This document shows, in pieces, positions 2,248 to 26,793 of a stretch of DNA of 27,851 bases (position 1 is the first letter of the stretch; each line of letters opens with the position of its first letter). Below the pieces are notes generated by a model that was not told the origin of the DNA, did no database searches, and saw nothing but the letters and a program-made list of their open reading frames with translations. Made by a program: the position numbers and the translations under genes. The stretch lies in the sequence record PZ583740.1. The stretch is one strand, 5' to 3'. The stretch comes from a phage.

Positions 2248-3071
2248 GTATTTTTACATTTATCAATGAATCTGCAGATAAACCAGGTCCGAAACCCAGT
2301 AAATCAGAACAACAATGGGTTGAAATAGGGGTTGAATTTTATACAGCAAAAGAAAAGGGAATGACCTCGAAGAAGTTTGCTGAAGAGAAAGGAATCAACT
2401 ATTCGACCTTTACCAAAAGCATGTCAAGATATCATTCGAGAATTCAGACTGCTTATAAAGTATCCAAGCTCAAAAAGAAACCTGCCGGTAAACTTACGAA
2501 GGCTGAACGTCAGCTGATAATGGTGAATAGCTTTAGAAAGAGCATAAGAGATAAGATTGCTAACGAAGGCGCTGCAAGCAACACCAAATCTGCCAGATGG
2601 TTCGCTGAGACAATTAAGAAATCAGTTCGGGGCCACGTAACGGCTAAACCTCAACCGGGTAAGATTTATGCTTATATCTATGATGCAAAGCATAAGGATA
2701 CTCTTCCGTACTGGGACAAATATCCGTTAATCATTTATCTTGGGCTAGGTAAGCACAATTTGATGTATGGTTTGAACTTGCACTATATTCCACCGAAGGC
2801 ACGTCAAGAGTTCCTTGAGGAACTTCTTAAGCAATATGCCAATACTCCTACGATTACGAACAAGACTCATCTGAAGATTGATTGGTCAAAAGTGAAGGGA
2901 TTTAAAGGGGCTGACCAGATGATTAAAGCATATATACCTGGCAATATAAAAGGTACTATCACTGAAATCAAGCCCAGCGACTGGGCAAATGTGGTATTAC
3001 TCCCCCTTCAGCAGTTTTTTTCAAAAGGCAAAAGATTTTCTTCACAGAAAGTATGGAGAAATTCACTTTGA
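2244..3071 (+). CDS. 2: DNA end-protector protein gp2
   Basis: Position between genes 4 and 3 as in T4; about 275 aa from ATG at 2244 (AAGGA upstream). Sequence recall for gp2 is weak, so the call rests largely on synteny and size. Confidence 0.65.
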
Positions 3072-3727
3072 ATTATCAGTTTATATATTCATCGTTAATT
3101 GAAAGGGCCCGTAACAGGGTCCTGATTTCATATAAAGAATCTCATCACATCATTCCGAAATGTATGGGTGGTTCAAATGCTCCGGATAACTTAGTCGATT
3201 TGACTCCCGAGGAACATTATGTAGCCCATCAACTATTGGTTAAAATATATCCTACAAATCCAGGTTTAAGTTTTGCTGCCACATCTATGAGTCAGTCAAG
3301 CAAGTATTTGAAACGCAATAATAAATTATTTGGCTGGTTAAGACGCAGACACGCTGACAATATTTCTAAAAGCCAAACCGGTAAAGTTTACTTTAATAAT
3401 GGTGTCAAATCGATAAAACTATTTCCATGGGAAGATGTTCCGGATGGGTTTGTCAAAGGAAGACATTACAGCCCAACCAAGGGTACAAAACATTCTCGCA
3501 ATAATGGACATTTTAAAAATAAAGAGATTCAGGACGAATTGAGAAAGCGCCGGTGGGAAAAAGATAGGCAAGAAATGTGTAAAAACTTCGGAGTTGATAC
3601 CATCGAGCAAGCTCGAGAGTTGGTCCTAGCATATAAAAAGGAATTGCATCCTCGATACTGGGTAAAGCCAATGTTGGAACGTTATCCGTTTATGACTAAG
3701 CTAAGACTTAACACATTAATAAAATAA
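3053..3727 (+). CDS. HNH homing endonuclease (free-standing)
   Basis: 224 aa with HNH motif [29 protein letters not shown]; inserted between genes 2 and 3, overlapping the gp2 3' end by 19 nt. Confidence 0.8.
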
Positions 3728-7550: not shown

Positions 7551-8519
7551 ATGCGGATTATCAGAAAGATTCGCCTGCAAGGCTTCACCAGCGGTGAATG
7601 GGTAGCTCGCGAGAAGATTCATGGTACCAACTTTTCATTAATCATTGAACAAGACAATGTGACATGTGCGAAACGCACTGGACCTATCCTGCCTGCAGAA
7701 GATTTCTATGGTTATGAAATTGTATTAAAGAATTATGCTGATTCTATTAAATCTGTGCAGAAACTTTTGCAGGATATTAATTACCAGGCATACCAGATTT
7801 ATGGTGAGTTTGCCGGGGCAGGTATCCAGAAGAATGTGGATTACGGTGATAAAGATTTTTATGTATTTGATATCCGCGTTACTAAAGAAGATGGTTTTGA
7901 ATCCGTCCTGACTGACACCTTGATGGAAGCATTCTGTATTATCCATAAGTTTAAGGTTGCACCGCGCCTGGCTACAGGTAGTTTTGAAGAATTAATTAAG
8001 CTCCCTAATGACCTGGATTCTGTTGTCCCTGATTACAATTTTACAGTGGATAACGCGGGTTTGACTACAGCAAATACCACTGATTTTGTTGCAAAGGTGG
8101 AAGGTAAAGTATTCACTGCCGAAGGATTTGTATTAAAACCTGATGTTCCTGCATGGTTACCTAACGGCGAGCGTGTAGCGATTAAATGTAAGAACTCTAA
8201 ATTCAGTGAAAAGAAAAAGTCTGATAAGCCTATTAAGGCTGCAGTGGTTCTGAGCCAAAATGATATGGATTTACTGTGGAATTTCACTGATTATGTGACT
8301 GTTAACCGTATCAACAATGTTATCAGTAAAATTGGGGAAGTAACACCGAAGGATTTTGGAAAGGTAATGGGGTTAACAGTCCAAGATATTCTGGAAGAAG
8401 CGGGGCGCGAAGGTCTTGAATTGTCCCTGACGGAAAATCCTGTTGAAGTTAAAAAGCAACTTATTGTAAATGTAAGAGAAACATTAAGACATGTTTGGAT
8501 TGCATTAGTTAGTGAATAA
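7551..8519 (+). CDS. rnlB: RNA ligase 2 (Rnl2 / gp24.1)
   Basis: 322 aa with nucleotidyltransferase motif [20 protein letters not shown] and strong overall similarity to T4 Rnl2; true 5' end uncertain (ATG with good RBS at 7538 is in another frame). Confidence 0.85.
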
Positions 8520-8547
8520 AAATAAAGGGCCTTGCGGCCCTTTTTTA
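8520..8547. terminator. Bidirectional rho-independent terminator between rnlB and gene 24
   Basis: Hairpin GGGCC-TTGC-GGCCC (8527-8540) flanked by an A-run upstream and T6 downstream; lies between convergent stops. Confidence 0.7.
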
Positions 8548-9825
8548 ATTTATTTCAGTCAGAACTTTAGGAAGTTTCACACCAAGCAGTACAGACATAT
8601 CTGAACGTCCTGCCATCAAATCCATATTTGTTGCATCAATAATACGAGCTTGTTTATCATCAGCAGTCACTGTATAAGGGTTAGCTGCTAACGCATAACG
8701 AACCATTAATGCAATAGACGGCTGCAAACTTTCTGGGTCAACGACAACTTTGAACGAACCAACATGTTCAGGGTCTTCCAGGTCAAGACCTTCGGTATAA
8801 GGTGCATAAAACAGTGAACCCACCATCTCTTTCCCACCGAAATCTTCTTTAACACCAACAGTCACATAATCAAATGGAGTGTTCGTATCGCAATAAAGCG
8901 GTAGACCATTATCCAAGAAACCATACGCATTATCGGAGAGATATTTCTCATCTTGTGGACGATGCTTCAACCAACCAGAACCAGCCAAAACTGCAGCTAC
9001 ACGCGTAGAAGCAACAACGTATGTTGCGGTGTAAGAAGTTGCCCGCTGAATATGGGAGACCATCTCACACATGATTTCGTACAACTTGCGTGAAGCTTCC
9101 GGAGAGTTGGTATAAGACAGGTCAATCAGGCCATCATCACAGAGTCCAGCAACTTTATAACGCTTGGAAACTGTTACCAGGGATTGCAGGATATCTTTGT
9201 TAATTTCATCAGCCATTTCGGTAGCTAACAGGTCTTCCAGGAAGTTTGGAGCGTCAAAACCATTTGCTTCCAGGTCCTGGGCCAGTTCCACTGTAACAGT
9301 GCTTTTCAGCTTACGAGATTTAACCGGAGCATTCCATTTGTTAACCAAAAATTTAGCTTCGGCAATTTCGACTTCCTGTGGTCCTTCAAAACGTTCGGTG
9401 ATTGCAGCTTCGGACATAATACGGATGGTCAATTTAACCATCGCTTCTTGAAGCTGGTCATACTCATCGCCCGTTGCTCCAGCAAATGGAGTTGCTACCA
9501 GCGCTTTATAAACTACATTTTCAAACTGGAACAAATCGTCTTTAGCATAAACTGCGCCAGCAACAAAAACCGGAATGGTCGCACGGTCTTTTGCTGATAC
9601 TGCACCAGAATAGGTTGCACCAGTCTGGAAAGATAATTCATCTTTCTGAGTCAGGTATTTAAGACCGTATAATGCCGCCAGTGGCTGGGATGTGCGCTGT
9701 TGTGCTACTAAATCGGTGTAAATCAGTTTAGTTGTAGCTCTGGTTAAAGCTACTAGATTCGGTCGACCAATCGAAGAACTTGTGGTCGTGGTCGACTCTT
9801 TTAAGAGTTCGTTAATTTTAGCCAT
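8545..9825 (-). CDS. 24: Head vertex protein gp24
   Basis: 426 aa, MAKINELLKESTTTTSSSIGRPNLVALTRATTKLIYTDLVAQQRTSQPLAALYG...; gp23-paralog fold; matches T4 gp24. Confidence 0.85.
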   Translation of the reverse strand: MAKINELLKESTTTTSSSIGRPNLVALTRATTKLIYTDLVAQQRTSQPLAALYGLKYLTQKDELSFQTGATYSGAVSAKDRATIPVFVAGAVYAKDDLFQFENVVYKALVATPFAGATGDEYDQLQEAMVKLTIRIMSEAAITERFEGPQEVEIAEAKFLVNKWNAPVKSRKLKSTVTVELAQDLEANGFDAPNFLEDLLATEMADEINKDILQSLVTVSKRYKVAGLCDDGLIDLSYTNSPEASRKLYEIMCEMVSHIQRATSYTATYVVASTRVAAVLAGSGWLKHRPQDEKYLSDNAYGFLDNGLPLYCDTNTPFDYVTVGVKEDFGGKEMVGSLFYAPYTEGLDLEDPEHVGSFKVVVDPESLQPSIALMVRYALAANPYTVTADDKQARIIDATNMDLMAGRSDMSVLLGVKLPKVLTEIN

Positions 9826-9850
9826 TGCTATTTCCTTTTGTGATATACTT

Positions 9851-9858
9851 TATTTATA
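9851..9858 (-). promoter_or_regulatory. T4-type late promoter (TATAAATA on minus strand) for gene 24
   Basis: Reverse complement of 9851-9858 is TATAAATA, 25 nt upstream of the gp24 ATG. Confidence 0.55.
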
Positions 9859-9864
9859 AAAGTT

Positions 9865-9894
9865 GTTTACAACCAGATTAAGATAAGACATAAT
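9865..9894 (+). promoter_or_regulatory. T4-early-like promoter (GTTTAC, 18 nt spacer, CATAAT) for the plus-strand 93-aa ORF
   Basis: GTTTAC at 9865-9870 and CATAAT at 9889-9894; AT-rich upstream. Confidence 0.4.
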
Positions 9895-9935
9895 GATTCC
9901 ATACTGAGTTAACAAACAAAACCTGGAGTTTAAAA

Positions 9936-10217
9936 ATGAACAAAGCAACTTTCCTTCTGAACACCTTTAAAAATCTGGAAATTGAAGTTATTGCCTTGGT
10001 CAACAAATACCCAAATGGTGTTAATGGTAATGCTCTGAACAAACTAGTTAAAAAATATGAAAACTTAGCATATGACACTGATTTCTGGTGGAATGGTAAT
10101 TATTCTACTCACACTAAAGATAAAAATGGTAACTGGTTGAAACTTCAAGAAAACAATGTTAACTTCAGAGACCTTATCAAGCGCCGGGTAGAAGTTCATT
10201 TAAATGGTATGGTATGA
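9936..10217 (+). CDS. Hypothetical protein, opposite-strand gene between head genes 24 and 23
   Basis: 93 aa ORF with GGAG RBS 8 nt upstream of ATG, own promoter-like element and a downstream hairpin terminator; no recognisable motif. Confidence 0.5.
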   Translation: MNKATFLLNTFKNLEIEVIALVNKYPNGVNGNALNKLVKKYENLAYDTDFWWNGNYSTHTKDKNGNWLKLQENNVNFRDLIKRRVEVHLNGMV

Positions 10218-10224
10218 AAACAAG

Positions 10225-10252
10225 AAAGGGACCTCAAGGGTCCCTTTTTATT
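10225..10252. terminator. Bidirectional rho-independent terminator after gene 23 and after the 93-aa ORF
   Basis: Hairpin GGGACC-TCAAG-GGTCCC (10228-10244) followed by T-run on plus strand and T-rich tract on minus strand. Confidence 0.7.
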
Positions 10253-10267
10253 TAACTTAATCTAGGA

Positions 10268-11827
10268 TTAAATTCCTTTAACATATACGCGGCGGAAGTA
10301 ACCGTTCAAGCCAAGGCTGTTAACGATGTCCGGCATGCCGTTCTGAATGCGCTTGGTCGGAGCCTGAGCAGCAGGGTCAGCAAACGGGTTGATACCGATA
10401 CCGTAACGGGTTTTGAAGCCCATAACCGGCTGGAAGTTTTTCGGGTCAGAACCACGCAGCGGGGTCAGTGCAACATATGGTGCGTAGTAGATACCAGCAT
10501 CCATTTCGTTAGCGCCTTTGTAACCGATGGTGAAGTAATCTGCACGAGCATACTGGTCGATATAGACACGGTATTTGCCACCCAGAACACCAGCGAACAC
10601 AGCTTTAGTGGTGTCAACGTTGAAACCTTTACCCAGACCCTGAGCAGCATAACTAACAGAAGTATCAACAGCAGCCAGCACGTTAACTACGTTACGGGAA
10701 GCGATGATGAAGTTACCTGCACCACGACCGGTCTGACGAGCGATTTCAGCGGCTTCTTTATCAATCTGGAACAGTAAAGCTTTGAAGCTTTCACCAGCCC
10801 AACGAGCACCACGGATATCAATCGGGTCCTGGAAGTCAAACACACCAGCTTTAGCGCCAACGGTGTTGGTCATACCAGATTTACCAACCTGAGCGGAGTA
10901 GTTAATCCAATCGATAACTTCACGGTTGATTTCCAGCATAATTTCGGTAGCCAGAATACCACTCAATTCGGCATCAGCATCCATACCATGAACAGCGCGC
11001 AGGTCCTGTGCCAGTTCGATGGAGTAGCTTGCTTTCAGCTGACGGGATTTAGCTTCGATAACTTGTTTATCGATACGGAAGCCCATTTCGTTCCACGGGT
11101 TATCAGTAGAACCGTTAAAGCCTTCCTGCAATTCGGCGATAGAAGTAGCCATACCTTCAGCGATTTCTGCCAACTTACCAGCTTCGAGCAGTTTGGTAAC
11201 TTCAGCGTCAAGTTTAGCAGCATCAGTAGCACCAGCATCAACGGTTACAGCTTCAACAGCCTGGTAGTGTGCAGAACCGGTTGCTTCGAAGAAGTGAGAA
11301 TAAATTTTACCAACTTCCAGAACTTTGCTTGCAGCCAGTGCTTCAAAAGTCTGAGCAGCGCCCTGACCAGAGAACATAGCGTTCGGAGCATACATCGGAT
11401 GGAAAGCTTCTTTAGCACCAGCAGCGACAGGGTCTTTACCGTATACTGCACGCAGTGCAAATACCTGGCCAGTCGGGTTGTTCAGAGGCTGTACGCCACA
11501 AATATCAAACGCAATCAGATGCGGGATAGCACGACGAACCATACCCATAACTGCCGGCCCAATCTGAGTTACTGCACCAGAGGTCTGGCCAGCAGCGATA
11601 TTGGTAGCATCATAACCATGGTCACCACCGATTTCAGCTTCGGTCAGGAAAGAACCAAATGCTTCGGAGATTTTTTCGTCACGGTATTCAGGAGCGGTCA
11701 GAATATCTTGTTCCTGGTTTTCAAAGATTTTAGCGATGATAGCTTGTTTAGAAGCACCAACGATTTCAGGAAGAGCTTCGTTTTCCAGCAGAGCGGACCA
11801 TTTTTGAACTAATGCATTCTTTTTCAT
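10268..11827 (-). CDS. 23: Major capsid protein gp23
   Basis: 519 aa; near-identical stretches to T4 gp23 (AIIAKIFENQE, GAVTQIGPAVMGMVRRAIP, DPKNFQPVMGFKTRYGIGINPF, YFRRVYVKGI). Confidence 0.95.
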   Translation of the reverse strand: MKKNALVQKWSALLENEALPEIVGASKQAIIAKIFENQEQDILTAPEYRDEKISEAFGSFLTEAEIGGDHGYDATNIAAGQTSGAVTQIGPAVMGMVRRAIPHLIAFDICGVQPLNNPTGQVFALRAVYGKDPVAAGAKEAFHPMYAPNAMFSGQGAAQTFEALAASKVLEVGKIYSHFFEATGSAHYQAVEAVTVDAGATDAAKLDAEVTKLLEAGKLAEIAEGMATSIAELQEGFNGSTDNPWNEMGFRIDKQVIEAKSRQLKASYSIELAQDLRAVHGMDADAELSGILATEIMLEINREVIDWINYSAQVGKSGMTNTVGAKAGVFDFQDPIDIRGARWAGESFKALLFQIDKEAAEIARQTGRGAGNFIIASRNVVNVLAAVDTSVSYAAQGLGKGFNVDTTKAVFAGVLGGKYRVYIDQYARADYFTIGYKGANEMDAGIYYAPYVALTPLRGSDPKNFQPVMGFKTRYGIGINPFADPAAQAPTKRIQNGMPDIVNSLGLNGYFRRVYVKGI

Positions 11828-11848
11828 GTGTTGTATAACCTTATTAAA

Positions 11849-12667
11849 TTAAGAAATTCGTGATGCTGCGAGAGCAGACAAGTCCGCGAAGGACAGGGTA
11901 GGCTTGGCGCCTTTTTCTTCAACTGCTTCTGAAATGTAATTCAGTGCCGCAGCATCGTCTACATTTTTATTTATAGCGGCTTCGGTGATTGGTTTGTCGG
12001 TGGGTTCTACCTGACCTTTAACCATTTCAACGATAGCGCCAATTTTGGTACCGAATGCATCAGAGTATTCCATGCCTTCTACCAGAGAACCAACTTTTTC
12101 TTTCTGAGATTCAGTCAGGTCTTTAGTTGCTTCAGTCAACGCAACTTCACGTTGGACATAATTGATATAAGCATCACGCTTAGAAACTTCTTCGAACAGG
12201 TTAGCGGTTTCTTCTTTCTGTTCAGCCAGTTCTTCCTGCATTTCTGCAACAACATCGACAGATTCTTCCGGAACAACAACGTTGTGCTCAACGAACAGTT
12301 CTTTCATGCCGGTGAACATGGATTCGAACAGGTCAGCTTTAATGCCACGGTCGACAGCCAGTTTATTTTCAGCAAGCCATTCTTTAGCAACGTGGTCCAG
12401 GAATTTAGCTGCAGATTCTTTCAGTTTTTTCTCTGCTTTTTCGTCGGATTCTTCTTTATTCTTTTCGACTTCTTCTTCAGCTTTTTCAGCGATGGCGTGA
12501 ATGTGAGATTCTGCCAGTTTGATGGCGTGTTGCTTGACGGTAGCTTCGAATACAGTGCCGAAGGTAGCTTTCGCTTCCGGGGACAAATTAACTGATTCGA
12601 AAATACTATCGAGAGCAACGGAAGCATCGATATTCTGAGCTTCAGAAATGAGTTGTTCTTTAAGCAT
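11849..12667 (-). CDS. 22: Prohead core scaffold protein gp22
   Basis: 272 aa, highly acidic coiled-coil-like protein between genes 21 and 23, as in T4. Confidence 0.8.
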   Translation of the reverse strand: MLKEQLISEAQNIDASVALDSIFESVNLSPEAKATFGTVFEATVKQHAIKLAESHIHAIAEKAEEEVEKNKEESDEKAEKKLKESAAKFLDHVAKEWLAENKLAVDRGIKADLFESMFTGMKELFVEHNVVVPEESVDVVAEMQEELAEQKEETANLFEEVSKRDAYINYVQREVALTEATKDLTESQKEKVGSLVEGMEYSDAFGTKIGAIVEMVKGQVEPTDKPITEAAINKNVDDAAALNYISEAVEEKGAKPTLSFADLSALAASRIS

Positions 12668-12696
12668 TTTGTAGTCCTGTTGTTAAGATATACATT

Positions 12697-12704
12697 TATT
12701 TATA
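12697..12704 (-). promoter_or_regulatory. T4-type late promoter (TATAAATA on minus strand) for gene 22
   Basis: Reverse complement of 12697-12704 is TATAAATA, 29 nt upstream of the gp22 ATG; overlaps gp21 stop codon. Confidence 0.5.
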
Positions 12705-13338
12705 ACGTCTTTAAAGCCTCTGCGAGAGCCATAAAGGCGTCATCGGCACTGGTATCGGCAACAGCCGTTTGTGATTCTGTAATCTGCTTTGGTTTGACCC
12801 AAGCGTCCGGAGCACTTGGCCCCCATACTGCGTCTACTCCAACCGTCAATTTAAAACCTTCATTAACGATGTTATAACCTTTTGCTGATTTAGTCAGGGA
12901 ACCAAGTCCACGACTAGATACGCCAGGAATCCAACCTGCTCTTATATTCGCAGCAAGTTTATCACCTGGACCATGGTCGCCTTCTATAATACGTGCGCGG
13001 CCATATACATCATTCCCTTTCCACCACATTTCCTCGATAATAATTGCTGCCTGCATAGGGTCAACGTTTGCACGAGGTGGATGGTTTAATTCTCCAAGAG
13101 ACTGCTTGGTTTCAACCTGTTCGACGATATAGTCCGCAACAGCTTTTTCCAAAATATGTTTAGGATAAAGTCGTTTATTACGGTTAACAACTTCAGCTTG
13201 TAGGAAAATACCTTCAATATAAAGTCCTGGCTTTAAACCGCTGCTGGAACCATCATGAGATTCCAACATCGGTACACCATCTTTAATTTCGCCCGGTTGA
13301 CCCCAGTGTTCGATTAGTAACTCTGGTTTCTGTTCCAT
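12700..13338 (-). CDS. 21: Prohead protease gp21
   Basis: 212 aa, [21 protein letters not shown]...; same length as T4 gp21 and matching sequence. Confidence 0.85.
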   Translation of the reverse strand: MEQKPELLIEHWGQPGEIKDGVPMLESHDGSSSGLKPGLYIEGIFLQAEVVNRNKRLYPKHILEKAVADYIVEQVETKQSLGELNHPPRANVDPMQAAIIIEEMWWKGNDVYGRARIIEGDHGPGDKLAANIRAGWIPGVSSRGLGSLTKSAKGYNIVNEGFKLTVGVDAVWGPSAPDAWVKPKQITESQTAVADTSADDAFMALAEALKTL

Positions 13339-13766
13339 TAATCAAGTCCGAATGCTTTACGCTTAGCTCGAGCTTTTTTGCGCTTGCGCTCTGCTCTGAT
13401 TTGCGTAGATGGGTTTGCTCTTTTCGTTTTAGTAGCCAGACGGGCAATTTGACGACGTTTAGCTTTAGAAAGACCGGTTGTTTGGAAAGCATTACGCTTA
13501 CGAGTAGCTAGGTCTTTTGTGCGGGTTAACTCACCGCGAGACGATACATGTTTAACGATAAATTCGTTAAGCTGAACACCTTCATTCAGAGCGCCGATAA
13601 CCGTTGCTTTTTCGTATTCACCGGCTGCAAACATGTTTTCTACAATAATATTTATATCGTCTTTTTCTAAGGCTTCGGATAATGAATCAAATTGTCCCTG
13701 AGCTTCTTCGGAAACACTTTCAATGTTTTCAAGAGTTAATTCGTAATCATCAGGGATAATAAACAT
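13338..13766 (-). CDS. 68: Prohead core protein gp68
   Basis: 142 aa with basic C-terminal tail; position between 67 and 21 as in T4. Confidence 0.7.
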
Positions 13767-13993
13767 TATTCATCGTCCTCATCGTCAGATTCTTTTTTGT
13801 CTTTCTTTTCTGCTTTGCCGTCGTCCTTGCCTTCATCTTCTTTAGGCTCTTCGCCTTCAATCATGATGGAACGTGCAATTTCAATCTTACGTTCTTCAAT
13901 CAAACTACCGCATACTGGGCCAATGTTTTCAGCAAAATATTTGCGAACGGCTACGAGGTCGTTTGATTTAATGGCTTCAAATAAATCATCCAT
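13766..13993 (-). CDS. 67: Prohead core protein gp67
   Basis: 75 aa with acidic C-terminus; position immediately downstream of gene 20 as in T4. Confidence 0.7.
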
Positions 13994-15567
13994 TAGAAAT
14001 CCTCTTCTTCTTCTTCAGGGTTTTGGAAACGAGCCTCTTTGGACTCCAATTCAATTTGCTTAGCTTCTTGATTAATTTCTTCATCAGACATCTGGAGGAA
14101 ATCCTTCATAGCCGTTTGATGTGAAATATATTTACCGATAAACGGTTCAGCCATCGTTAGCATATTGATTCTGCGTTCCATGATTTCTGCATCTTTCATT
14201 TCGGTGAAATAGCTATCACGGTTGAACGTAACTTTAATATTATTTAGTTCCTTGTCCCATTCCTCTTCTGAAATAATTTTTTTCAGGATAAGGTTTGTTT
14301 TAAGCGGGTCGAGGAAAACTTCTTCAAATTTATTCTGTAGCTGTCGAATCCATTTAGAGAAATTCAATTCATCGCGAGTAATTGTCGCACCTGCATCAAA
14401 CATAACGCCGCTGTTCTGGTCGTTAGGGATACGAGATAATGGAATTCGGAGCGCCTGATATAGGTTGTTCTTAAACCAGCGAACATCGTCCATATCCGAC
14501 ATGCCTTGTGCACCCGGGAGTGTATCAACTTCAGTGACTGCTTTACCATCACGACGTTGCAACCAATAGTCTTCTGTCATTGACATGTTGTGCTGTTGGT
14601 TTTTGATTTTACCCGTAGTTGCATCATATACGACACGGTTTTTCATCGTGTTCATAATATGTTGCATGTGTGCTGCTGCTTTACGAGACGGCATATTCCC
14701 GGTATCGATATAAAAGACTCGGCGGTCTGGGGCACGAGTTATACGATAAATGACTAAAGCATCTTCTAATAGTTTTAATTGGTTTGCAGGTTTAATTGCT
14801 CGTTGCAAGTATCCGATGATATTCTTGCCACAACAATCGAGTAATCCAGAATGCGCATATACAATCGCCGCACGAGGAATTTTTATTTTAGTACCTGCTT
14901 CATATATACGACCATCGGCACAATAACTTTCATGGCCAGTATCGTATACAAAATATTCTCTGTAACCGTCGACAATTTTTGTACCGTTTTCCATGCGTGT
15001 AACGATTTCACGGATGAACTGGATTTGTCTTGGGTCAAGGCGACGAAGTTCTTGAACTCCATCTTTAAGTTTTGATGGGTTGATAATTTTGTGGAAGAAA
15101 ATTCGAGAATCCACATACCAACGTTTAAAGTGGTCAGAACCTTTGCGCTCGAAATTAAGGAGGTTATTGACTTCCGAGAATTCTTCGAGGATTCGGTCTT
15201 TAATTTTCTGACTAAATTCGGTAGCATCAAGGTTAAGAGCTACAACATCTTTACCGTCTTCAAAAACGATAGCATCAGACACAATTTCTTGCACTGCGTT
15301 ATCAACTTCATAATTATTTAGTAAGTTGCGGTAGGTGTCAATTAATTCCCTGGTATTTTTTACTTCAGGTTCATTGCTCCCGAACATCTGTTGCATCAAT
15401 GCATTATACGGGACGTTTTGTTCTTGTGACTCAATTTCACGAGCCCCATCATCAAACTTCGGCCCGGTCATTGACTCTAAATTATTTTTTTCTTGTTGCT
15501 TATATTCTTGTTCATCTTCTTTAGCCCAAGGCTTAAGAAAATTTAGTATTGTGTTAAAACCTGCCAT
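13993..15567 (-). CDS. 20: Portal vertex protein gp20
   Basis: 524 aa; long stretches matching T4 gp20 ([58 protein letters not shown]). Confidence 0.9.
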
Positions 15568-15595
15568 TAGAGTCTCCGAAGTTTGTCTATTACTT

Positions 15596-15603
15596 TATTT
15601 ATA
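15596..15603 (-). promoter_or_regulatory. T4-type late promoter (TATAAATA on minus strand) for gene 20
   Basis: Reverse complement of 15596-15603 is TATAAATA, 28 nt upstream of the gp20 ATG; overlaps the stop of the upstream endonuclease gene. Confidence 0.5.
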
Positions 15604-16186
15604 TTGGAGTTCGGGTACAATTTTTATGATATCGAACAATCGCAGAGCGAGTGGACTCCGTACCACATACGGGACAAATTGCACGAGGTAAATTTAATGA
15701 TTTTCCTTTATTTGGATGTTCTTTACCAAACATAGGATTATTTTCACCGCTCATTGCTTTAGAATGGTCTGGTCGTTTTCTTCCTGATAATGCTTTGGAT
15801 TGTCTTGGACGTTTAACACCAGTATTGCTTTTATTTCTTTTATCGATAGATTCCTGTGTCCAAACCTTACCTTTCATCGACATACCAAAAAATCCATTTG
15901 GTTGAGCTAATGACATATTTATATAGTTTGGTGATTTAACCACATTGTATAATTTTTGTACTCGTAATTCTTCTTCAATAGCTTCTTCGTGCGTATTAAA
16001 TGTTTTTAAGATACGAGTTTTAAACAACTGAGGATTATCACGTAATTCATTTTTCCAAATGGTTTTATATTTTTTAGAACCAACGGAACCATGATAATTT
16101 TCAGTTATTCGTTGAATAGTTGTCGAGCCGATGTAACGACGGGGAAGGAGATTCCCCGTATATACTGTAAGATAAGTGCAATACAT
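15599..16186 (-). CDS. GIY-YIG homing endonuclease (Seg-like)
   Basis: 195 aa; N-terminal YLTVYTGNLLPRRYIGST (GIY...YIG), NUMOD3-like repeats (SGRKRPDHSKAMSGENNPMFGK), C-terminal CPVCG...HKNC zinc finger; GGAG RBS. Confidence 0.8.
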   Translation of the reverse strand: MYCTYLTVYTGNLLPRRYIGSTTIQRITENYHGSVGSKKYKTIWKNELRDNPQLFKTRILKTFNTHEEAIEEELRVQKLYNVVKSPNYINMSLAQPNGFFGMSMKGKVWTQESIDKRNKSNTGVKRPRQSKALSGRKRPDHSKAMSGENNPMFGKEHPNKGKSLNLPRAICPVCGTESTRSAIVRYHKNCTRTPI

Positions 16187-16232
16187 TCAAATTTCTCCAC
16201 TTCATTGTTTGAATGTATTTATTATGTCACAA

Positions 16233-16598
16233 TTATTCCCACCAGTCAATTGCGAACGTCGCTTCGAACGTCTCAATCTCATTATTGGAGTCCCAATCCA
16301 TCTGGACTTCCCCAACGTTGGTTGGCCACATGCCGGTAATAACAACTTCTTTCGTAACGGTCTTGCCATCACGATGGAACTGGCGGACAGTAGCGGTTTT
16401 CTTATAATCAGCAGGAGCTGCACCGGTGATTTCGTTAGTCATACCGTGACACAGATTTTGCCAATCAACAATTGCTTGACGAACTTTATGAGCATCGTCG
16501 TTATAAATCGTAATAGTCCAGTCATCAAATGTACGGTCACCCGCCACGTTGATTTTACGGTTCATGTAACCGACCGGAACTTTTTCTACAATGCCGAT
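16233..16598 (-). pseudogene. 19: Tail tube protein gp19, 5'-truncated fragment (about 42 N-terminal codons missing)
   Basis: In-frame region ...IGIVEKVPVGYMNRKINVAGDRTFDDWT...NEIETFEATFAIDWWE matches T4 gp19 residues ~43-163; an in-frame TAA at 16599-16601 and the gp11 stop at 16636 leave no room for the N-terminus. Confidence 0.6.
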
Positions 16599-26116: not shown

Positions 26117-26793
26117 TATTCTGAATCCTGTTTAAATTGTTTTATCATTTTGTCATAAGCCGTATTTGGAAATCCGTTTTCAATGGCCAATCGTGTCATT
26201 TTTCTCCAACCTGGCTTATCATTTTCTTTCCATAATTTGAATAAAATATCATATGATTGCCAAATGGGGTGTTTTCTATTATTAAGTTTGCATAGGTCAA
26301 TAACAGATTGAGGTCTTGGTCTTTTATATAAAGGATGCTCTTCTCCTCTAACAAAAACCCTCGGTTTTGGAGGTAGCTTAGGTTTTCTCCTTTTGGCCAT
26401 AGCTTTTTCAAAATTTTCAATATGTTCTTTACTTCTAGGTGGCTTTGGCCTACCCTTCATTTTGTCTGATGTTTGCTTTTTTGAAGATTCCTTATGCTTT
26501 CTTCCTCGCATACTTCCTTTGCCACCCAAATCTATATTATAATATCTATCATCATAAATTATAGATTCGTCTACTAAAAATTCTTCGTAGTCGTAAGCTT
26601 CATCTTCAGTATCAAAAAATTTTATTATTTTTGTCTCAAACGAATCCTTTCCATATTTTTTATAAGCCTTTTTGATAAGCTCCCCTGTGCCGTAATATCC
26701 ATCAAACATATCGTCAGTAGAATGTTTGCCTATATACTTTTTACCATTTTCTAGGTTTGTAGTTACATATACAAAATTAAATTCTTTGTTCAT
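26116..26793 (-). CDS. GIY-YIG homing endonuclease (Seg-like)
   Basis: 225 aa; N-terminal [18 protein letters not shown] (GIY-YIG), basic NUMOD-like central region; start overlaps gp5.4 stop, stop overlaps gp6 start. Confidence 0.75.

Follow-up and report, generated by a model that had tools for sequence, protein, structure and literature searches.

A conserved gene with early-type signals on the opposite strand between head genes 24 and 23 of a Gaprivervirus phage

The gap between genes 24 and 23

We analysed a stretch of phage DNA of 27,851 nucleotides (nt) (sequence record PZ583740.1; the whole stretch is referred to as the window), with a focus on the gap at 9826-10267 between the late head genes 24 and 23. 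This gap holds an open reading frame (ORF) for a protein of 93 amino acids (aa) on the plus strand, that is, opposite to both head genes. The gap is the entire intergenic interval, from the start of gene 24 (minus strand) to the stop codon of gene 23 (10268-10270). It is 442 bp long, has a GC content of 32% and contains a single long ORF. Its identity to Escherichia phage DK-13, Shigella phage SP18 and vB_EcoM_RZ is 99.6-99.7%; the three phages belong to the genus Gaprivervirus. Judged by these identities, the window phage is a Gaprivervirus (SP18/RZ-like).

The gap displays a full expression unit, composed of a promoter of the sigma-70/T4-early type, a Shine-Dalgarno sequence, the 93-codon gene and a terminator common with gene 23, all set opposite to the late head genes (Table 1).

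Table 1. Features of the 24/23 gap, its bordering genes and insertions elsewhere in the window (pI, isoelectric point; dN/dS, ratio of nonsynonymous to synonymous substitution rates)
Feature	Position	Strand	Basis or remark
-35 element GTTTACA (GTTTAC 9865-9870; TTTACA 9866-9871)	9865..9871	+	promoter scan; invariant in 11/11 relatives
-10 element CATAAT	9889..9894	+	promoter scan; TACTAT in Dhakavirus and Mosigvirus, same spacing
Shine-Dalgarno GGAG	9925..9928	+	7 nt before ATG; invariant in all relatives
Coding sequence, 93 aa, 10.9 kDa, pI 9.4, phrog_6003 / RB69ORF188c family	9936..10217	+	ATG start, TGA stop; hmmscan, AlphaFold2, dN/dS
GC-rich hairpin, bidirectional intrinsic terminator common to the ORF and gene 23	~10223..10249	both	T-run after it on each strand
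T4-type late promoter TATAAATA for gene 24	9851..9858	-	25 nt upstream of gene 24 start
Gene 24, capsid vertex protein, 426 aa	8545..9825	-	ORF list; gp24 annotated in SP18, RZ, VR7; left border
Gene 23, major capsid protein, 519 aa	10268..11827	-	ORF list; right border of slot
Insertion ORF, 224 aa	3053..3727	+	no Pfam match
Insertion ORF, 195 aa	15599..16186	-	no Pfam match
Insertion ORF, 225 aa	26116..26793	-	GIY-YIG / SegE-like

In the promoter scan, TTTACA-17-CATAAT scores 10/12 to the sigma-70 consensus. Read as GTTTAC-N18-CATAAT, the same region fits the geometry of T4 early promoters (-36 to -31 and -12 to -7), whose consensus has GTTTAC at the first of these sites and a -10 hexamer of the TAnnnT type at the second (PMC1524935). 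From this geometry, transcription is predicted to start near 9901. The late promoter of gene 24 stands back-to-back with the plus-strand promoter, 6 nt from the -35 box.

The GC-rich hairpin begins six bases past the ORF stop codon and is stable on both strands. The plus strand folds with -17.0 kcal/mol (z -3.8) and is followed by UUUUUAUUU, and the minus strand folds with -16.5 kcal/mol (z -2.9) and is followed by UUUCUUGUUUUC. Each strand has the hairpin and U-tract of an intrinsic terminator. A known RNA family in the gap was also considered and rejected, with only sub-threshold matches of terminator-type small RNA models.

The gap was aligned for 11 phages from three genera (Gaprivervirus, Dhakavirus and Mosigvirus). 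The 17-nt spacer and the 5' untranslated region have diverged beyond recognition, while GTTTACA and GGAG are invariant and a -10 hexamer is kept at the same 17/18-nt spacing. The late-promoter block TTTATTTATAAA is invariant in all 11 relatives; T4 and the empty gaps of other genera have it too. In the terminator, the stem carries a compensatory change between genera (GGGACC...GGGTCCC vs GGGAGAC...GTCTCCC). A fourth T-even lineage (L014) has GTGTACA ... TATTAT ... GGAG. That the signals persist in three genera despite divergence of the spacer speaks for their being functional.

This arrangement of promoter and terminator is not new, as it was predicted for the RB69 orthologue in 2006. The supplements of Nolan et al. 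2006 (PMC1524935) report for RB69 an early promoter, Pe:109605, on the minus strand (hidden Markov model score 29.9), an overlapping late promoter, Pl:109573, on the plus strand, and a terminator “23-><-RB69ORF188c” at 109234-109251. Both RB69 promoters lie at the sites that correspond to those of the window.

As for the ORF itself, a frame of at least 93 aa is found in 0.7% of 5000 dinucleotide shuffles of the gap. Taken alone, this frequency is suggestive, not decisive, and it is the comparison with relatives that decides the coding status. Homologues were found by tblastn in 238 phage records, with identities from 100% to 34%. These are 92-100% in Gaprivervirus, 56-64% in Dhakavirus and ~36% in Mosigvirus, and fall to 34% in ABPH49, an Acinetobacter phage with the label Vequintavirinae. 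The match to phrog_6003 (hmmscan, E 3.6e-47) is full-length, with residues 1-90 aligned to profile positions 1-90 of 90.

The window ORF is 100% identical to SP18_gp189 and corresponds to VR7ORF190c, a hypothetical protein with the annotation “similar to JS98 ORF173c”; that of the PhAPEC2 orthologue reads “similar to RB69ORF188c”. All T-even records inspected (SP18, VR7, VR25, VR26, UPEC07, VR5, Bp7, PSD9, PhAPEC2, moskry, AV110 and two metagenomic contigs) have the gene in the 24/23 gap and on the opposite strand. The two metagenomic T-even contigs encode proteins with 31% and 57% identity to that of the window, in the same slot and strand.

Within and between genera, dN/dS is 0.05-0.31. Values calculated by the Nei-Gojobori method are 0.08-0.31 within Gaprivervirus, 0.06-0.12 within Dhakavirus and 0.10-0.17 between these two genera. 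Against Mosigvirus the value is 0.32, with dS saturated there. In an alignment of 19 sequences, M1, K3, F6, N30-G31-N32, A45 and Q71 are invariant, and L14, L21 and N35 nearly so. On this comparative evidence, the ORF is a real protein gene under purifying selection, and we are highly confident that it is expressed autonomously. The gene is already annotated as a hypothetical protein in more than 200 phage genomes; its arrangement is ordinary, and only the protein is uncharacterised.

The encoded protein and its relatives

The AlphaFold2 model, built from the 19-sequence alignment, has a mean predicted local distance difference test score (pLDDT) of 93.7 and a predicted template modelling score (pTM) of 0.80. 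It contains helices at residues 3-24, 31-48 and 77-91 and a beta-hairpin at 52-61 / 67-71, with the invariant NGN in the loop after the first helix. The product is thus predicted to be a three-helix bundle with a projecting beta-hairpin and without a catalytic motif. The predicted hairpin is the W/N-rich segment WWNGNYSTHTKDKNGNW. The pI in other lineages is 9.5-9.8, and the net charge is +4 to +6 in every lineage. Inspection by eye reveals neither a signal peptide nor a membrane segment.

Scans of Pfam, NCBIfam and PADLOC with three divergent members, and with the 19 aligned members, returned only inconsistent sub-threshold matches (DUF5380, DUF4859 and Ca_bind_SSO6904). None of the PADLOC families, which would point to anti-phage defence, was matched by the three divergent members. 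A sequence-profile search of PDB gave nothing below E 0.1. With Foldseek against BFVD, the sole match is a member of the family itself, A0A346FIP4, a distant homologue of the ABPH49 type (TM 0.86, 32% identity), which shows that the fold is conserved within the family. There is no structural match to the DNA-binding folds helix-turn-helix, winged helix or HU/IHF.

An exhaustive phmmer search of 1.8 billion representatives yielded 5 matches, which comprise family members, a chimeric 160-aa fragment and P0024, a 1633-aa surface protein with Ig repeats. This last protein, of metagenomic origin, aligns to query residues 30-68 eight times (E 6e-8 summed). Its repeat motif VTWPDGTTSTTTVDESGNWHTK (W-P-D-G-T-T-S-T-T-x-D-E-S-G-N-W) resembles the FWWNGNYSTHTKDKNGNWLK hairpin. 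Homology to P0024 was rejected, and a short beta-hairpin or compositional motif is probably the likelier explanation, because Mosigvirus members lack it. Two profile searches of a set of 5.8 billion sequences retrieved 25 proteins (P0001-P0023 and P0025), all from phage-like contigs. One of them, P0017, carries the JGI label “NADPH-dependent curcumin reductase CurA”, an evident mis-annotation.

A preliminary description of this DNA had named the 93-aa plus-strand ORF as filling the gap, together with an early-type promoter (GTTTAC/CATAAT), a GGAG ribosome-binding site and a bidirectional terminator. The ORF was indeed found there, and the signals are present and conserved across three genera. 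The N/W-rich peptide that it quoted is correct and covers residues 52-68. It had recognised no motif in the product, in line with the lack of any consistent match in the scans above. The homology and structure search that it proposed led to the 238 records and to phrog_6003, with no fold relative outside the family in PDB or BFVD. The interval is not non-coding in close relatives, as that description had considered; these have orthologues, with dN/dS well below 1.

In its evolution, the ORF has diverged far more quickly than its neighbours. Between the window phage and PhAPEC2, the ORF product is 34% identical, against 83.5% for gp23, 67% for gp24 and 71% for gp22. When compared to VR5, dS is 0.33-0.44 for genes 22 and 23, and 1.7-2.2 (saturated) for the ORF and gene 24; protein identity is 98.5% for gp23 and 70% for gp24. 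The contrast in dS places a mosaic boundary near the gene 23 terminator (~10220-10270), with the ORF sharing the deeper history of gene 24. It implies recombination or gene conversion, with a breakpoint near that terminator.

Family members come from two settings only. One is the 24/23 slot, in Gaprivervirus, Dhakavirus, Mosigvirus and one further T-even lineage. The other is a group of ~140-kb Vequintavirinae-like phages, where the homologue lies in long arrays of small, unannotated genes on one strand and is bracketed by GC hairpins. As this homologue lacks a dedicated promoter, the promoter is a property of the T-even slot rather than of the gene. No functional annotation was obtained for the neighbours of the distant homologues.

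On a contig of ~35 kb (L028, 790-972), the array with the family member also has a T7 gp0.6-like gene (PF26851), a gene with a Phage_g100 domain and a DUF7222 gene. By its gene content, this array fits an early host-takeover gene block. The occurrence of distant homologues in such arrays is typical of early accessory genes.

The slot in other T-even genera and the rest of the window

The gap between genes 23 and 24 is variable. In Tequatrovirus teqhad, Jiaodavirus, Karamvirus, Muldoonvirus and Slopekvirus it is empty, with a length of 83-93 bp in which the late promoter is directly followed by the hairpin, and there is no GTTTACA box. Gelderlandvirus also has an empty gap, of 98 bp, with a possible TTTTACA remnant. 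In Salmonella phage NP4 of this genus (L017, 2633-2728), ATTGTTTTACATC is found directly after the late promoter, and may be the remnant -35 box left after loss of the cargo gene. In the case of the Tegunavirus phiR1-RT, a Yersinia phage, the slot is occupied by an unrelated opposite-strand ORF of 504 aa, g177 (L023, 2674-4188), which has its own promoter-like sequence and a flanking hairpin. Krischvirus has two small same-strand ORFs in the gap.

In T4, the gap holds segD, which encodes a free-standing GIY-YIG homing endonuclease of 223 aa on the strand opposite to genes 23 and 24. The preliminary description had named this gene as the T4 occupant of the gap, and the T4 genome (NC_000866) bears it out. 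It had also presented the 93-aa gene as set against the late head operon. The opposite strand is correct; the arrangement is not special, as T4 segD is likewise opposite, with a homologous promoter-like element and hairpin.

Across these genomes, the 23/24 gap appears as a recurrent insertion site, or insertion hot spot, that is empty in most T4-like genera. The inserted cassette is composed of promoter, ribosome-binding site and ORF, and uses the pre-existing gene 23 hairpin as its terminator. Seen in this way, the antisense orientation is the usual state of the slot when occupied, and is not peculiar to the window phage.

Next to the slot, the window phage has one gene 24 only. Two tandem gene 24 paralogues lie beside the slot in VR5 (Dhakavirus), NP4 (Gelderlandvirus) and two metagenomic T-even contigs. 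A second bidirectional terminator-like hairpin (AAAGGGCCTTGCGGCCCTTT) is present at 8524-8543, between the convergent rnlB and gene 24, and corresponds to the “24-><-rnlB” terminators predicted in RB69.

The ORF locus is part of a contiguous block, 7565-15585, with 98.3% identity to vB_EcoM_RZ. Outside this block, the window is not collinear with vB_EcoM_RZ, its closest relative. At the joint 7564|7565, rnlB has lost its first 53 nt and follows directly on the beginning of a small ORF from the neighbourhood of the tRNA region. The joint at 16595|16596 links nt 363 of gene 19 to about nt 40 of gene 12, and thus genes 12, wac, 13, 14, 15, 16, 17 and 18 are missing from the window. Both joints are sharp and without microhomology. 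Since a genome with such joints would not be viable, the assembly may be chimeric or edited, or the genome itself defective. The lack of collinearity leaves the finding of the small gene unaffected.

Relative to vB_EcoM_RZ, the window also has three insertions of ~650-680 bp, at 3066-3723, 15586-16232 and 26118-26791, with one ORF each (Table 1). They look like free-standing insertions of the homing-endonuclease type between essential genes.

Possible function and comparison with known systems

The explanation that we consider best, and with reasonable though not high confidence, is that the gap holds an early, self-contained unit that encodes a host-directed accessory protein. Accessory distribution, fast divergence between lineages, purifying selection within lineages, presence in two unrelated groups of coliphages and an early-type promoter form the usual pattern of host-interaction genes.

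In such a scheme, host RNA polymerase would transcribe the unit right at the onset of infection, in the first minutes, while sigma-70 promoters are still active, and the hairpin would stop transcription before an antisense run into gene 23. The product would bind a host macromolecule stoichiometrically, as an accessory factor of host takeover or counter-defence, and would be neither a virion nor an assembly component. Early expression is probable, given the type of promoter. The role as a host-directed binding factor, drawn by analogy, is the weakest step and is put forward tentatively.

A more specific proposal, which we regard as doubtful, is that phrog_6003 is an unrecognised fold class of early effector that neutralises a specific Enterobacterial target, either a defence system or a housekeeping machine. 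Such an effector would have been exchanged between T-even and rV5-like coliphages, and parked in a pre-wired slot also used by homing endonucleases such as segD. In the predicted structure, the aromatic beta-hairpin and the invariant N-G-N helix cap would be presented by the three-helix bundle.

Several points weigh against the host-directed early unit. We infer the early timing from the promoter type alone, and the -10 hexamer CATAAT departs from TATAAT at position 1 (C, not T). In Dhakavirus and Mosigvirus the hairpin carries a U-tract on the gene 23 strand only, which may allow some read-through of the ORF transcript in these two genera. The assignment as a binding protein or inhibitor comes from analogy with other small early T-even proteins, and searches of Pfam, NCBIfam, PADLOC, PDB and BFVD gave no similarity to a characterised protein or fold that would back this role. 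Literature searches on the locus names had no return, and neither transcript nor proteomic or genetic data were found for any member of the family. Finally, the gene is absent from most T4-like genera, and is therefore dispensable for the basic lytic cycle.

Among the other explanations, the protein could be a nucleic-acid-binding regulator, that is, a small basic DNA or RNA binder modulating phage or host expression, or the nucleoid, early in infection, like T4 MotB or DsbA. Its basic character is seen in every lineage (pI 9.4-9.8, net charge +4 to +6), its size and predicted shape of a helical bundle plus hairpin are compatible with such a role, and its expression signals are of the early type. 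The lack of a DNA-binding fold speaks against it, and we consider this function unlikely. We give somewhat less weight to the idea that the locus is mainly a regulatory device, with the peptide secondary, where early transcription would occlude the gene 24 late promoter or yield an RNA antisense to the 3' end of gene 23. In its favour, just 6 nt separate the -35 box from the opposite-strand late promoter TATAAATA, a similar promoter-like element persists in T4 beside another cargo gene, and antisense read-through into gene 23 is conceivable in Dhakavirus and Mosigvirus, where the plus-strand hairpin has no U-tract. However, purifying selection acts on the encoded protein, the family exists outside the slot in ~140-kb phages without the promoter, six genera do without such a promoter in the gap, and the plus-strand terminator of the window is good.

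The position of the gene would be explained if its product were an accessory of head morphogenesis, e.g. a chaperone or regulator for gp23/gp24. Synteny with genes 23 and 24 is strict in four T-even lineages, and the ORF tracks the history of gene 24 and not that of gene 23 (dS saturated for both, vs 0.33 for gene 23). We find this role very unlikely, as the gene is on the opposite strand and has a promoter of the sigma-70 instead of the late type, most T4-like genera with the same capsid lack it, its homologues in ~140-kb phages are not near capsid genes, and the slot has unrelated cargo in T4 and Tegunavirus. Even less probable is that the gene is the orthologue of the “Emp” peptide of Mosigvirus AV110, reportedly an early elongasome-modulating peptide that inhibits MreB-dependent peptidoglycan synthesis, described in a preprint said to concern the early-expressed small proteins of this phage (bioRxiv 10.64898/2026.09.14.751387); a function would then already have been reported. 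AV110 has an orthologue, WPK33856.1, in the same slot, and a distant homologue is near a gene similar to T7 gp0.6, which is an MreB binder. However, term probes of the preprint's text gave no occurrence of capsid, RB69, WPK33856 or a size of 89 residues, which would be unlikely if Emp were the 89-aa gene of the slot. As for a chance open frame in a non-coding spacer, the gap is AT-rich and 0.7% of the shuffles reach such a length. This is refuted, to the point of having practically no probability left, by dN/dS well below 1, full-length homologues at 31-64% identity, a confident AlphaFold2 fold and a conserved ribosome-binding site.

As a feature, the small gene is routine; T-even genomes hold many small early ORFs that lack an assigned function. 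Its modest interest lies in phrog_6003 as a well-conserved and confidently folded orphan family, with a narrow host range (phages of Escherichia and Shigella), which makes it tractable for screens of host takeover or counter-defence. Another point of interest is the 23/24 gap as a pre-wired expression slot whose cargo varies by genus (empty, phrog_6003, segD or the 504-aa ORF). This variable slot bears on how accessory genes and homing endonucleases settle within essential late operons.

The closest known counterpart is the RB69ORF188c / VR7ORF190c / JS98 ORF173c / SP18_gp189 family (phrog_6003) of Mosigvirus, Gaprivervirus and Dhakavirus, which is the same family, without differences of substance, in the same position and strand, with the same promoter, ribosome-binding site and terminator. 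The window protein is 36% identical to the RB69-type protein. In contrast to the Dhakavirus and Mosigvirus versions, that of Gaprivervirus has 4-5 extra C-terminal residues and a U-tract in the plus-strand terminator.

In the case of T4 segD, the likeness is in the slot itself, with the same opposite-strand orientation, the GGAG, the gene 24 late promoter and the GC hairpin common with gene 23. At the homologous position, T4 has a promoter-like ATTTACA-N17-TATTAT (1234-1323 of locus L016, NC_000866, equal to T4 107233-107322). The -35 box differs, being ATTTAC in T4 and GTTTAC in the window phage, and the encoded protein is unrelated and has a GIY-YIG domain. A relation of the family to SegD was rejected, with an hhalign probability of 0.6% between the family profile and SegD, and no Pfam match to GIY-YIG. 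According to a published review, segD lacks its own promoter and is barely transcribed, with no segD-specific promoter found bioinformatically (Edgell et al. 2010, PMC2988022). Set beside this view, the T4 promoter-like element is a further point of modest interest. It could be a weakened or cryptic early promoter, and the G-to-A change in the -35 box may be the reason for the published lack of a promoter.

Finally, the small T4 proteins AsiA, Arn, Dmd and MotB are accessory proteins produced from sigma-70 early promoters. The window protein resembles them in size (~60-160 aa), in its early promoter of the GTTTAC class, in its accessory distribution among T-even phages and in its rapid divergence. 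It differs in that no similarity of sequence or fold to any of them was detected, and in that its gene stands alone inside the late head operon and not in an early-gene cluster. AsiA, Arn, Dmd and MotB act by binding and not by catalysis, and by analogy the 93-aa protein may do the same.

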